DNA of 63,977 nt, counting the filler, from an uncultured bacterium (GTDB lineage: Bacteria > CAZSTA01), in NCBI GenBank assembly GCA_964609495.1. It is 6 parts of 6 records of this genome, joined end to end, with 100 filler letters (N's around TTAATTAATTAA, not from the genome) between each part and the next. Parts side by side here need not be neighbours in the genome. Positions count along the whole stretch, not along the records: positions 53,923 to 63,977 come from CAZSTA010000133.1; 5 more parts are not named here. The stretch is one strand, 5' to 3'. Positions within the stretch are counted from its first letter, which is position 1, and each line of letters opens with the position of its first letter. The notes below the pieces were generated by a model. That model was not told the origin of the DNA. It ran no database searches and saw only the letters and a list, made by a program, of their open reading frames with translations. The position numbers and the translations under genes are program-made. Of the stretch, positions 10,792-55,897 are shown piece after piece.

Positions 10792-10891
10792 NNNNNNNNN
10801 NNNNNNNNNNNNNNNNNNNNNNNNNNNNNNNNNNNTTAATTAATTAANNNNNNNNNNNNNNNNNNNNNNNNNNNNNNNNNNNNNNNNNNNN
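10792..10891. other. Artificial contig linker
   Basis: N44-TTAATTAATTAA-N44, stops in all six frames. Confidence 0.98.
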
Positions 10892-14446: not shown

Positions 14447-15010
14447 TTAATATCTTTCAAGAAATTTGTCGATTATCTCTTGGGGCAATTCATCTCTATT
14501 AGAAGGATCCACTGGGAGAACGACACTTTGCCCAGAAAGATACTTACCTACAACATCTACCAATTCTGGACGTATAACTATTAAGGCTATGAGGAATTCT
14601 CCCTTATCTAGCACCTCCTTCCAGTTGACGAATCCCCTCCCCTGCTCTAGCTCTAAAGGGCCGATCTCGTCGATAATTAGAATAGTAGAGGGAAACTCCC
14701 CCTCCTCTCCACATTTCTTATCGATACAAGTGGCTCTGGAGAGTAACCTTCTGCCCCACTCCAGAGCCGCTTCGGAGAAGCTATATCTACCTTGTCTAGG
14801 CCCAGGGAGATCTTCGTCAACTCTAGCTAAGATCTTCCTCTCTCCACTATATAAGTCTATGATCTCAATCCCTATCTCATTTCCTTCCTTAAAGATGGCG
14901 GGAGATATAAAGCCTTTACAGAGATAGCCCCTCCGTCCTACTAACTCACATAATTTTCGACAGATGACGGTCTTACCTACTCCTCGCTCGCCAGTTAAGA
15001 TCACAATCAA
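14447..15010 (-). CDS. Nucleoside triphosphatase (THEP1/DUF2478-like)
   Basis: ILTGERGVGKT Walker A, IIDEIGPLEL Walker B; TTG start after GAGGAGG. Confidence 0.82.
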   Translation of the reverse strand: MIVILTGERGVGKTVICRKLCELVGRRGYLCKGFISPAIFKEGNEIGIEIIDLYSGERKILARVDEDLPGPRQGRYSFSEAALEWGRRLLSRATCIDKKCGEEGEFPSTILIIDEIGPLELEQGRGFVNWKEVLDKGEFLIALIVIRPELVDVVGKYLSGQSVVLPVDPSNRDELPQEIIDKFLERY

Positions 15011-15030
15011 TATCTTCCTCCTCGCTAAAT

Positions 15031-15065
15031 AAACTGTGATCGTCGGGGTTTGACGATCACAGTTT
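15031..15065. terminator. Hairpin downstream of glnA
   Basis: Perfect 14-bp inverted repeat AAACTGTGATCGTC/GACGATCACAGTTT. Confidence 0.65.
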
Positions 15066-15108
15066 GAGGTGAGGTGTAACAGTAACATCAACCTATATCT
15101 GTAATCTA

Positions 15109-20087: not shown

Positions 20088-20200
20088 CTCTTATCCAGAG
20101 CAGGCTGAGGGACTGGCCCTATGAAGCCCGGCAACCAATCTAGGATCCTCTGGATATGGTGCTAATTCCTGCAGGACTGTTTTATCCTGAGAGATAAGAG
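20088..20200 (+). ncRNA. SAM-I (S-box) riboswitch
   Basis: CTCTTATCCAGAG...GAGGGACTGGCCC.ATGAAGCCCGGCAACC...GGTGCTAATTCC...AGATAAGAG. Confidence 0.95.
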
Positions 20201-20298: not shown

Positions 20299-21594
<1,296 letters not shown>

Positions 21595-21658: not shown

Positions 21659-21758
21659 NNNNNNNNNNNNNNNNNNNNNNNNNNNNNNNNNNNNNNNNNN
21701 NNTTAATTAATTAANNNNNNNNNNNNNNNNNNNNNNNNNNNNNNNNNNNNNNNNNNNN
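21659..21758. other. Artificial contig linker
   Basis: N-TTAATTAATTAA-N. Confidence 0.98.
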
Positions 21759-32443: not shown

Positions 32444-32543
32444 NNNNNNNNNNNNNNNNNNNNNNNNNNNNNNNNNNNNNNNNNNNNTTAATTAATTAAN
32501 NNNNNNNNNNNNNNNNNNNNNNNNNNNNNNNNNNNNNNNNNNN
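32444..32543. other. Artificial contig linker
   Basis: N-TTAATTAATTAA-N. Confidence 0.98.
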
Positions 32544-43164: not shown

Positions 43165-43264
43165 NNNNNNNNNNNNNNNNNNNNNNNNNNNNNNNNNNNN
43201 NNNNNNNNTTAATTAATTAANNNNNNNNNNNNNNNNNNNNNNNNNNNNNNNNNNNNNNNNNNNN
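43165..43264. other. Artificial contig linker
   Basis: N-TTAATTAATTAA-N. Confidence 0.98.
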
Positions 43265-53822: not shown

Positions 53823-53922
53823 NNNNNNNNNNNNNNNNNNNNNNNNNNNNNNNNNNNNNNNNNNNNTTAATTAATTAANNNNNNNNNNNNNNNNNNNNNN
53901 NNNNNNNNNNNNNNNNNNNNNN
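53823..53922. other. Artificial contig linker
   Basis: N-TTAATTAATTAA-N. Confidence 0.98.
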
Positions 53923-54125
53923 GTGCCTCCGATAAGGAGAACCGCTCCTCTCATAGGCACAAAGGTATATCAGACCAACATAATTGTGATCCCGAAGAAG
54001 GTCATAATAGTGCCTGTCTGGGGGACGTTTAGAGTATGGAGGAGAGCGCCTAAGCTCATCTCTGCAACTCCCCAGATCGTTCCAAATAAAGCTATGTAAA
54101 CCAAATCTCTAGTCTTATACCGCAT
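53923..54125 (-). CDS. ECF transporter S-component-like membrane protein, 3'-partial, with an in-frame TGA at codon 52
   Basis: MRYKTRDLVYIALFGTIWGVAEMSLGALLHTLNVPQTGTIMTFFGITIMLV*YTFVPMRGAVLLIGG; TRDL.YIA.F start typical of S components; directly downstream of the ECF ATPase. Confidence 0.65.
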
Positions 54126-54212
54126 ACTCTCTCCCCTCTCTCGTTACCTCAAGATTTGAAATATCATTACTCCTACTGACTTCACAAACTTCACTTCCTA
54201 AGATCCTCATCT

Positions 54213-55646
54213 TTACAGTGGTCGAATTTTTCCTTCCTCTAACTTAAATATGTTTCGAGCGTATCTGTTTACCAACTCTTGATCGTGAGTTATAAGCAGG
54301 ATTGTATTCCCTTGTTCATTGAGCTTCTTAGTGAAGTCCATAAACTTAGTCAGATGCCCCCAATCCTGCCCTAAAGTCGGCTCATCCAAGATCAATAAAG
54401 TGGGAGTTAAAGCTAGGATAGAAGCCAAAGCCAATCTTTGTTGCTGACCACTGCTTAAAGAGTGAACCCTCTCATATCTCATATCAGTTAAATCCGTAAT
54501 CGACAGGACTTCCTCTAAACGACCATCAAGAGGAAGCCCAAAGTTATTCAACCCAAAAGTTATCTCCTCCTCAACAGTATCGCAGAAGAGTTGTTCCAAA
54601 GGATTCTGTTGGAGCAATCCGATCTCTCTCCCAAAACTCACTTTAACCCCACGTCCAAATACCTTAACCCTTCCGGAATCAGGCTTGAGCAATCCCAAAA
54701 TGATATGAGCTAGAGTAGATTTTCCGGCGCCATTGTCTCCTACTAGAGCAACGAAATCACCTTTAGCTATCTTCAAAGATAGATCCCTTAAAATAGGTTT
54801 ATCCCCATATCTGAAGGATATATCCTCCAAAGATACTATTAAATCATCGTTTTGTCTATAGTGGCTTGTCTCCTCTCTATCACCTAATTCAAGAGGCCTT
54901 ATTCCTAATTCCTCGATCTTCTCCTTCTCGCTGAATACCTCCTGCGGAGCGCCATCTAAAATTAACTTCCCCCTATCCATAACTAATACCCTGTCAGCTA
55001 GAGGCGCTACTAGAGAGGTTTTATGCTCTATGATAAAGATGGTGATCTGCTCCTCTTGATTCAAACGGGTTAGAACATCCAAGACCAACTCTGTTCCCTT
55101 TCGATCTAAGCTACCTAGAGGTTCATCTAAGATTAGTGTATCAGGATGCATCGCCAAGGTTGCGCCAATTACGACTCGTTGCTTCTCTCCTCCAGAAAGT
55201 TCTCTTACCAATTCCTGAGAATAATTTTCGATCCCCACCGCCTCAAGCCCAAACTTCACTTTATCTTTGATTTCCTCATTTGAGAGGGCTAGATTGCGCG
55301 GGCCAAAAGATAGCTCTTCCTCGACAGTTCTATTAAATAGCTGAGTCTCTGGTATTTGAAACACTGACCCAACCTTAGTCGCTATATGAGCGACTGAGCT
55401 TCCCTCAGTATCTATCCCCTCCACCACCACCTTTCCTTCCACCCTGGCATTTATGATATGAGGTATGAGACCATTTAGACATCGAGCGAGAGTGCTTTTC
55501 CCACAGCCAGAAGGACCAGTAAGCAAGACCCATTGCCCAGAAGGAATTCGCAAGGAAAGATCGCTTATCGCGATCTTATCGCCATAACTCACCGTCAGAT
55601 TCTCAATTTGGATAGCTTGCTTAGGATCTGGAATATTCGATTTCAT
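54213..55646 (-). CDS. ECF transporter duplicated ATPase (fused EcfA-A')
   Basis: Two ABC domains: GPSGCGKST/FQ.PE.Q/LSGGEKQR and GDNGAGKST/QNP..Q/LSSGQQQR/DEPT.GQD. Confidence 0.92.
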   Translation of the reverse strand: MKSNIPDPKQAIQIENLTVSYGDKIAISDLSLRIPSGQWVLLTGPSGCGKSTLARCLNGLIPHIINARVEGKVVVEGIDTEGSSVAHIATKVGSVFQIPETQLFNRTVEEELSFGPRNLALSNEEIKDKVKFGLEAVGIENYSQELVRELSGGEKQRVVIGATLAMHPDTLILDEPLGSLDRKGTELVLDVLTRLNQEEQITIFIIEHKTSLVAPLADRVLVMDRGKLILDGAPQEVFSEKEKIEELGIRPLELGDREETSHYRQNDDLIVSLEDISFRYGDKPILRDLSLKIAKGDFVALVGDNGAGKSTLAHIILGLLKPDSGRVKVFGRGVKVSFGREIGLLQQNPLEQLFCDTVEEEITFGLNNFGLPLDGRLEEVLSITDLTDMRYERVHSLSSGQQQRLALASILALTPTLLILDEPTLGQDWGHLTKFMDFTKKLNEQGNTILLITHDQELVNRYARNIFKLEEGKIRPL

Positions 55647-55649
55647 AAG

Positions 55650-55677
55650 AAAAAAGCCACCTCCCCGGAGATGGCTT
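55650..55677 (-). terminator. Intrinsic terminator in the riboswitch leader
   Basis: Minus strand AAGCCATCTCC-GG-GGAGGTGGCTT-TTTT, ending just before the ATG. Confidence 0.8.
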
Positions 55678-55739
55678 ACAATTCAAAACCTCAGATATCT
55701 CGATAGGAGAGAGAGATATCCTTGCCAATGGTTGAATTA

Positions 55740-55843
55740 GCCTCTCCTTTCCAAGCACGAGGAGGTAGGGTCGTTTCCTTCCCTACCCGAAACGGCCAAC
55801 TAGTCCCTAGGCTACGCCCTTAGGCCTGATGGCTCGGAGAAGC
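55740..55843 (-). ncRNA. Moco (molybdenum/tungsten cofactor) riboswitch-like RNA motif
   Basis: Minus strand CTCCGAGC...CCTAAG..TAGGG...GTAGGG-aagGAAAcga-CCCTAC-CTCCTCGTGCTTGGAAAGGAG. Confidence 0.82.
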
Positions 55844-55868
55844 ATTAACTCCTATTCTACTGTTATAT

Positions 55869-55897
55869 ATTTTAACACAGACCTATCGAAAAGTCAA
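55869..55897 (-). promoter_or_regulatory. Sigma-70 promoter of the Moco-ECF leader
   Basis: TTGACT-17-TAAAAT with TG extension on the minus strand. Confidence 0.7.

Follow-up and report, generated by a model that had tools for sequence, protein, structure and literature searches.

Closest described systems

To our knowledge, bacteria synthesize their own molybdenum or tungsten cofactor (Moco or Wco), taking up just the metal from outside, and we know of no bacterial transporter for Moco, molybdopterin or cyclic pyranopterin monophosphate (cPMP). The riboswitch family of this pathway, the Moco riboswitch (Rfam RF01055; the Escherichia coli moaA leader is a member), controls moa genes, mod and tup transporter genes and genes of molybdo- and tungstoenzymes, these being the targets named in the main text of Regulski et al. 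2008 (PMC2408646). Here we describe a member that instead controls genes of an energy-coupling factor (ECF) transporter. It lies on the last contig (53923-63977) of a 63,977-nt stretch of DNA, hereafter the window, from an uncultured bacterium (CAZSTA01, assembly GCA_964609495.1). Like the described members, it matches the full-length model, has the P1, P2, P4 and P5 cores and is followed by a terminator-type expression platform. We read the locus as the 5' part of an operon, under riboswitch control, that encodes a dedicated group-I ECF importer, likely of a pterin-type cargo, and give this reading a probability of about 0.5.

Three kinds of described proteins bear comparison with the products of this locus and its relatives. 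(i) The importers ModABC, TupABC and WtpABC belong to the same pathway and are controlled by the same riboswitch class, but as ABC importers they are of type I and rely on a soluble binding protein with another fold; here the ATPase exceeds the cut-offs of ECF/CbiO models only and its membrane partner folds as S components do, which places the system outside these groups. (ii) The group-I ECF transporter YkoEDC (5EDL) is the top structural match, and it likewise combines a dedicated, fused A-A' ATPase with S and T components in one operon. It differs in that identity to YkoE is only 15-18%, in that the system here lies behind a Moco riboswitch, and in that relatives of this system add an extracytoplasmic lipoprotein and an NTPase_1 protein. 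We know of no described ECF system in which such a riboswitch, lipoprotein and NTPase_1 protein occur. (iii) The lipoprotein of the relatives shares its fold with PruR (7kos, 7kom, 7rkb) and with the Moco domain of sulfite oxidase and sulfite dehydrogenase. As with PruR, it is small and exported, with a mature part that lacks cysteine; unlike PruR, it is lipid-anchored, and its gene sits in an ECF operon rather than beside one for a DcpA-type signalling protein.

Our literature search found no paper that joins ECF transporters with the Moco riboswitch or with uptake of the cofactor, although such genes may appear, generically named, in the supplements of Regulski 2008 and Sun 2013. In the body of the riboswitch-regulon survey of Sun et al. 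2013, coenzyme uptake comprises B12, thiamin, riboflavin, queuosine and folate only, without Moco, and transporters for molybdenum and tungsten are filed under metal homeostasis (PMC3766115).

The riboswitch and its expression platform

The original prediction of a Moco-type RNA is borne out by the covariance model of RF01055, which matches at 65.5 bits (E 1.6e-13, model positions 1-135) where the gathering score is 36, far beyond chance. The conserved core is complete, with CUCCGAGCC starting P1 and P2, a GGAAAC-capped P4, and CCUCC...GGAAAGGAG closing P5 and P1, and these blocks are invariant across an 8-sequence alignment. Columns for P3 are nearly all deleted in the covariance-model alignment, leaving an aptamer of 124 nt in total. 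A CCG-TTT-CGG stretch had been taken earlier for a reduced P3; in the model alignment those bases complete P2 and open P4, and P3 is absent. The contig of one metagenome run (X2, see below) has one extra G behind 55767, in stem P4, a strain difference or an error at a depth of ~4.

P3-less members of RF01055 are a described subclass that correlates with tungsten-cofactor metabolism (Regulski et al. 2008, PMC2408646), and a 2024 study of Eubacterium limosum treats them as tungsten-cofactor (Tuco) switches (PMC11725836). The form in the window may likewise sense the tungsten cofactor, an idea that arises solely because P3 is absent. The ECF-linked matches to RF01055 in relatives (39 in 38 loci) are each 150-220 nt long versus 124 nt here, and the P3 position holds 28-62 nt in all 10 of the relatives' ECF-linked riboswitches that were aligned. 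In sequence, the leader of the window most resembles the P3-bearing ECF leader of locus L009, with which it agrees at 50/62 and 25/35 positions in the compared blocks. It is more distant from the P3-less leaders of aldehyde ferredoxin oxidoreductase (AOR) genes in G001 and G002, the genomes of the nearest relatives (30/61 and 10-12/23 positions). By this comparison, it has the look of an ECF-type leader from which P3 was lost. Three RF01055 matches occur in each of G001 and G002: a P3-bearing one before the ECF operon; a second 5' of a PBP_like_2 gene and on its strand, heading a TupBCA-like operon in G001; and a third, 111 nt long and P3-less, directly before an AOR gene. Matches to AFOR_N, the N-terminal domain of tungsten-type AOR, number 16 in G001 and 14 in G002.

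The aptamer is flanked, as had been noticed before, by a promoter-like TTGACT-17-TAAAAT site, with TG before the -10 element, and directly on its 3' side by an intrinsic terminator with a 10-bp stem, a 4-nt loop and a U tract (Table 1). Placement is the only weight these two elements carry, since neither count in the region is above that in shuffled sequences (promoter-like sites, 4 vs 3.2 +/- 1.6; terminators, 1 vs 1.4 +/- 1.2). Folding of the 223-nt leader yields two mutually exclusive structures that differ by 1.8 kcal/mol. The free minimum-energy fold (-79.3 kcal/mol) pairs the P1 3' strand and the linker after it (GGAGAGGCUAAUUCAA) with a segment overlapping the left arm of the terminator, forming a predicted anti-terminator; when the terminator is enforced (-77.5 kcal/mol), P1 closes. 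Alternative folds of this kind are the usual design of a ligand-dependent OFF switch, and the predicted structures point to OFF logic here. The right arm of the terminator contains GGAGG (55660-55664), a candidate ribosome-binding site 13 nt from the ATG, and the hairpin may therefore block translation too.

In the mechanism that we propose, transcription would begin at the promoter-like site and the nascent RNA would fold into a P3-less Moco-class aptamer. With cofactor bound, P1 would keep its 3' strand, the terminator would form, GGAGG would be masked and the operon would be off. With cofactor scarce, the P1 3' strand would pair with the left arm of the terminator as anti-terminator, and the genes would be read.

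Table 1. Features of the riboswitch-ECF locus, and joins between contigs, in window positions
Feature	Position	Strand	Basis or remark
Sigma-70-type promoter-like site	55869..55897	-	10/12 matches
Moco/Tuco riboswitch aptamer (RF01055), P1+P2+P4+P5	55728..55851	-	covariance model
P1 3' strand and linker, 5' half of predicted anti-terminator	55732..55747	-	folding
3' half of predicted anti-terminator	55667..55686	-	folding
Intrinsic terminator	55646..55677	-	stem 55677-55654; ends at ATPase ATG
Fused EcfA-EcfA' ATPase, 477 aa (P0001)	54213..55646	-	two ABC_tran domains
S-component-like gene, 5' part, 67 codons	53923..54125	-	start at 54125; cut by contig end
Artificial linkers	10792-10891, 21659-21758, 32444-32543, 43165-43264, 53823-53922		identical, N44-TTAATTAATTAA-N44

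Transporter genes

The gene directly behind the terminator has an intact open reading frame (ORF) and was recognized earlier as a fused ECF ATPase, an assignment that both ECF ATPase equivalog models now support (TIGR04520, 386.7 bits with a cut-off of 315; TIGR04521, 373.7 bits with a cut-off of 330). The S-component-like gene follows. Position 53923, the lower bound of the region first described, is the end of the contig and not of the gene; the S gene being cut there, no T subunit is visible in the window.

What the truncated gene encodes can be judged from P0002, a 206-aa protein from a Joint Genome Institute (JGI) metagenome that is 97% identical to the 67 codons. Its AlphaFold model (predicted local distance difference test score, pLDDT, 94.6) has the YkoE S component, 5EDL, as top Foldseek match (TM-score 0.61-0.64), and a structure search independent of Foldseek aligned 175 residues with the same structure at Z 17.1 and a root-mean-square deviation of 4.7. 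The next matches were FolT, BioY, RibU, PanT, ThiT and CbiM (Z 7.7-10.2), and ECF S components make up 9 of the 12 best structural representatives, in agreement with the S-like character first ascribed to the gene. At the sequence level, P0002 reached 18.4 bits for PF09819 (ABC_cobalt) in Pfam, below the cut-off of 25.2, and had no match in NCBIfam; a profile of the S proteins found nothing significant among Protein Data Bank (PDB) sequences (best E 0.3). Given the sub-threshold PF09819 score, we do not file the protein in the YkoE family and assign it to a sequence family of its own among ECF S components, with 818 cluster representatives at E <= 0.001. Among polar residues, conservation in this family is highest for two glutamates, E22 being invariant and E91 present in at least 90% of 40 sequences.

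Some distant proteins of the S family have unusual predicted architectures. An S domain and NTPase_1 share one chain in 6 of the 17 scanned, and fused members (P0078, P0086, P0089, P0102, P0111, P0121, P0063) also carry ~200 unassigned residues. Two of the 17 additionally have Plug or barrel domains of TonB-dependent receptors. All of these could be real fusions, which would hint at a larger organic cargo, or merged gene calls.

The S reading frame contains an in-frame TGA at codon 52 (53970-53972), where P0002 has Gly. We compared the locus with contigs of four public runs (X1-X4, from salt-marsh and marsh metagenomes). Runs X2 and X4 have C at 53972, giving GGA in place of TGA. Six codons further on, X2, X3 and X4 have C at 53953, giving AGG (Arg) in place of ATG, as in P0002; the X1 contig does not cover either site. 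Both changes are G-to-T on the coding strand and lie at most 50 nt from the contig end, and we therefore take both to be errors near the contig end or a private variant, rather than signs of a dead gene. An alternative genetic code for TGA was considered and rejected, since every other ORF is long when translated with table 11 and X2 and X4 have GGA at this site. A 948-nt contig of X2 extends 706 nt past the contig end at 53923, and a metagenome scan with P0002 gave a single distant locus of 33% identity.

Relatives of the module

Homologous loci were collected by a pattern scan, taking one genome per species and the best 80 of 133 confirmed matches, nearly all of them in metagenome-assembled genomes of Chloroflexota. 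The two peptide patterns came from a three-sequence alignment, which biases the 80 loci towards close Chloroflexota relatives. All 80 were scanned with Rfam at gathering thresholds; their ORFs were clustered, profiles were built, and representatives were named through Pfam and NCBIfam.

In 38 of the 80 loci, RF01055 precedes the S gene by 1.5-4.6 kb on the strand of that gene. The original prediction had named homologous modules consistently behind other riboswitches as counter-evidence, and the Rfam scan found another class upstream on the same strand in none of the 80; its sole other riboswitch hits were two cyclic di-AMP elements, both downstream and on the opposite strand. A maximum-likelihood tree of 81 S proteins sets apart a sister clade of 24 loci (support 100/97), in which a PadR-type regulator precedes EcfAA'-S-EcfT (PadR loci L011, L019, L028, L040, L044, L049, L060, L065, L067, L068, L071, L073, L074, L079, L080). 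The riboswitch, the lipoprotein and any Moco gene each occur in 0/24 of this clade, which may have a different cargo or a different regulation.

Outside the PadR clade are 56 loci, among which 38 have the riboswitch and 8 have too little upstream sequence. The usual operon runs riboswitch, NTPase_1/DUF2478 P-loop protein (44 of the 56), fused EcfAA' (55), S, lipoprotein (38) and CbiQ-type EcfT (55), sometimes with a TehB-like methyltransferase between EcfAA' and S. EcfT was detected with its own profile, which also found it in 23 of the 24 PadR-clade loci; the copy of L027 matches Pfam CbiQ at 45.1 bits, and that of L040 has no Pfam match. The operon often continues with MobB and MoeA, and in some loci with MobA, MoaA or FmdE; at least one of these five adjoins the module in 27/56. 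The neighbourhood survey of homologues that had been proposed as a check thus links the S gene to RF01055 at 38/56 loci and to Moco-pathway genes at 27/56, and this context, together with the lipoprotein gene between S and T, strengthens the link of the module to molybdenum- or tungsten-cofactor supply.

The S component of the window forms a clade with those of L001 and L002 (support 100/98, best identity 54%), whose operons comprise riboswitch, MoeA, MobB, MobA, EcfAA', S, lipoprotein and EcfT. No NTPase_1 gene follows the riboswitch in the window, and L012, L017 and L037 also lack NTPase_1 on the operon strand. Another contig of the window encodes an NTPase_1 homologue of 214 aa (14447-15091, minus strand), which scores 142 bits with the operon-type profile and shows 34-38% identity in its best matches; its neighbours are genes for a glutamine synthetase and a response regulator.

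Two further recurrent features were seen around the relatives. (i) Genes for a polyferredoxin-like protein (~400 aa), a 441-aa radical-SAM (S-adenosylmethionine) protein, TatC and TatA often lie upstream of the riboswitch (L027, 20-3704; L025, L031, L034, L055, L058, L069 and others). The best NCBIfam match of the radical-SAM protein is HxsC at 48.6 bits, far under the cut-off. (ii) A second RF01055 lies 3' of the ECF-Mob-MoaA cluster in L036 (10617-12577), L062 (10988-12055) and L064 (10613-12579), heading a small ORF and a gene for a protein with an FmdE domain, after which L036 and L064 encode a binding protein of ModA type (SBP_bac_11).

The lipoprotein partner

The gene between S and T in the relatives encodes a protein of ~150 aa with a weak Oxidored_molyb match. 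A signal peptide and lipobox are present in 30/30 of the first-pass ORFs and, by inspection, the mature protein has no cysteine beyond that of the lipobox. A 20-sequence profile matches SoxC (E 2.7e-7) better than the PruR proteins 7kom (2.5e-5) and 7kos (0.0094), with chicken sulfite oxidase at ~1e-4. The predicted structure (pLDDT 89.6) matches YedY and the Moco domains of sulfite oxidase and of sulfite dehydrogenase (for the latter, E 1.8e-8 and a query-normalized TM-score of 0.72), and it covers whole PruR proteins, with target-normalized TM-scores of 0.79 for 7kom and 0.74 for 7rkb, the latter solved with neopterin. PruR proteins are described as exported, as lacking the Mo-ligand cysteine and as binding pterins (PMC11194511). 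Taken with the fold, these traits indicate that the relatives encode an outward-facing protein of pterin/cofactor fold between S and T. In a class sample of 151 genomes, strong lipoprotein matches were found only in G001, G002 and G118, each adjoining an S gene. Other S types thus made up most of that sample, and the survey of metal transporters below was based on the genomes of the loci instead. A complex prediction for S and the mature lipoprotein, made from alignments led by L002, scored 0.00, with controls not run.

Nature of the cargo

The visible products of the locus are the fused EcfA-A' ATPase and a YkoE-like S component, and by analogy with the nearest relatives a lipoprotein of sulfite oxidase (SUOX) fold and EcfT are expected past the contig end. 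Such an importer would serve molybdenum- or tungsten-cofactor supply; its lipoprotein would capture a pterin-type cargo (molybdopterin, cPMP, Moco or Wco) outside the cell and pass it to S. For the identity of the cargo alone, a pterin-type cofactor or precursor has close to an even chance in our estimate, and it is favoured by the lipoprotein fold, the co-regulation by the finished cofactor, the presence of separate metal transporters, the S glutamates if they line the pocket, and the predicted fusions of distant S proteins if these are real. The proposal from which this work started, a salvage importer for the molybdenum or tungsten cofactor, holds up as to a dedicated ECF module behind a true Moco riboswitch, with Moco genes beside it in relatives; salvage itself is one of two live readings of that module, uptake of a metal oxyanion being the other.

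Several observations weigh against our reading of the locus. Ten of the 56 loci outside the PadR clade have no riboswitch although 2.7 kb or more of sequence lies upstream, and 18 have no detectable lipoprotein; in the window neither lipoprotein nor EcfT can be seen, the contig ending inside S, and the distance from GGAGG to the ATG is long for a ribosome-binding site. Salvage would not be obligatory, since MoaC is usually present: it was found in 5/5 riboswitch-ECF genomes examined, and in the class sample in 39/42 genomes with an S homologue (PadR-type included) vs 140/151 overall. Two facts about the nearest relatives also suit an importer of the same build whose cargo is molybdate or tungstate, free or complexed, with the lipoprotein as receptor for the oxyanion or metal complex and MoeA and MobB as users of the metal: in G001 and G002 the ECF genes are co-transcribed with MoeA, MobB and MobA, which they follow in one operon in L001 and L002, and neither ModA nor WtpA was found in these two genomes. 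Both genomes have the many tungsten-type AOR genes noted above, and Moco riboswitches classically control the mod and tup transporters (PMC2408646). We surveyed ModA and TupA in the genomes of the 38 riboswitch loci and of 12 of the 15 PadR loci (50 of the 80 loci), and WtpA in 5 genomes only. At the chosen thresholds, ModA and TupA-like proteins were both missing from 7 of the 37 genomes with a riboswitch-ECF locus, but the other 30 already have at least one of them (ModA 14, TupA-like 23), so that the ECF system is mostly not the sole metal route, and G001 has its TupBCA-like operon behind an RF01055 match of its own. The SUOX/PruR pterin-binding fold of the lipoprotein is not that of Mod, Tup or Wtp proteins, the conserved E22 and E91 of S would suit an oxyanion poorly if they line the pocket, and a literature search on ECF and molybdate, judged by titles and abstracts, gave no oxyanion ECF transporter. 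On this balance we regard a metal cargo as less likely than a pterin, but as the main rival to it.

It is improbable, in our view, that the cargo is something that pterin enzymes need only indirectly, such as another cofactor, a non-Moco pterin or another nutrient, with the riboswitch merely co-ordinating its uptake. This would fit the P3-less (Tuco) riboswitches of E. limosum, which also control two iron ABC transporters and FocA (PMC11725836); they count against pterin import too, since by this example the riboswitch does not name the cargo. It would also fit the binding of non-Moco pterins such as monapterin and neopterin by PruR-type proteins (PMC11194511), and the PadR sister clade, with its lack of riboswitch, lipoprotein and Moco genes. 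Against it stand the interleaving of the module with MobB, MoeA, MobA, MoaA or FmdE genes in nearly half of the non-PadR relatives, the leader that ECF and Moco genes have in common in L001 and L002, and the lack of any other upstream riboswitch class across the 80 loci. More improbable still is a decaying remnant, that is, an S pseudogene with a premature TGA and a switch without a working transporter. The TGA and the second change six codons on would suit it, as would the missing NTPase_1 gene, which most non-PadR relatives have behind the riboswitch. But both changes are absent from other runs and look, so near the contig end, like errors or a private variant; the ATPase frame is intact; three relatives likewise lack NTPase_1 on the operon strand, and the window has an NTPase_1 homologue elsewhere. 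Import of a pterin-type cargo by a dedicated group-I ECF system remains the reading that we prefer.

Other features of the window

Contigs of ~10.7 kb each, apparently sorted by falling size, make up the window and are joined by five identical linkers (Table 1), across which gene neighbourhoods cannot be read; what precedes 53923 is unrelated sequence that is not adjacent in the genome. On the contig of the riboswitch-ECF locus, the upstream genes encode glycoside hydrolases of families GH42, GH4 and GH2 and a methyltransferase, and the riboswitch unit stands alone among them. A SAM-I riboswitch (RF00162, 88.4 bits) at 20088-20200 on the plus strand lies directly 5' of an S-adenosylhomocysteine (SAH) hydrolase gene (20338-21594, plus strand). 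This gene, ahcY, is more usually found behind SAH riboswitches.

Significance

Both the RNA family and the transporter class of this locus are known; new are their combination, the extracytoplasmic partner and the presumed cargo. Tentatively, and at somewhat less than even odds, we propose that the system is the first bacterial uptake system for the molybdenum or tungsten cofactor or a pterin precursor, made of an ECF module and a lipoprotein of Moco fold, turned off by the finished cofactor and in its P3-less form maybe Wco-sensing. Salvage of cofactor or precursor becomes directly testable with a conserved importer that the cofactor is predicted to turn off. Were the cargo the metal, this would be the first ECF-type oxyanion importer, and with either cargo it would be an ECF system whose binding partner lies outside the cytoplasm. 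The hosts are Chloroflexota of sediments and marshes that carry many tungsten-type AOR genes, so the importer may bear on the tungsten and molybdenum economy of anoxic sediments.

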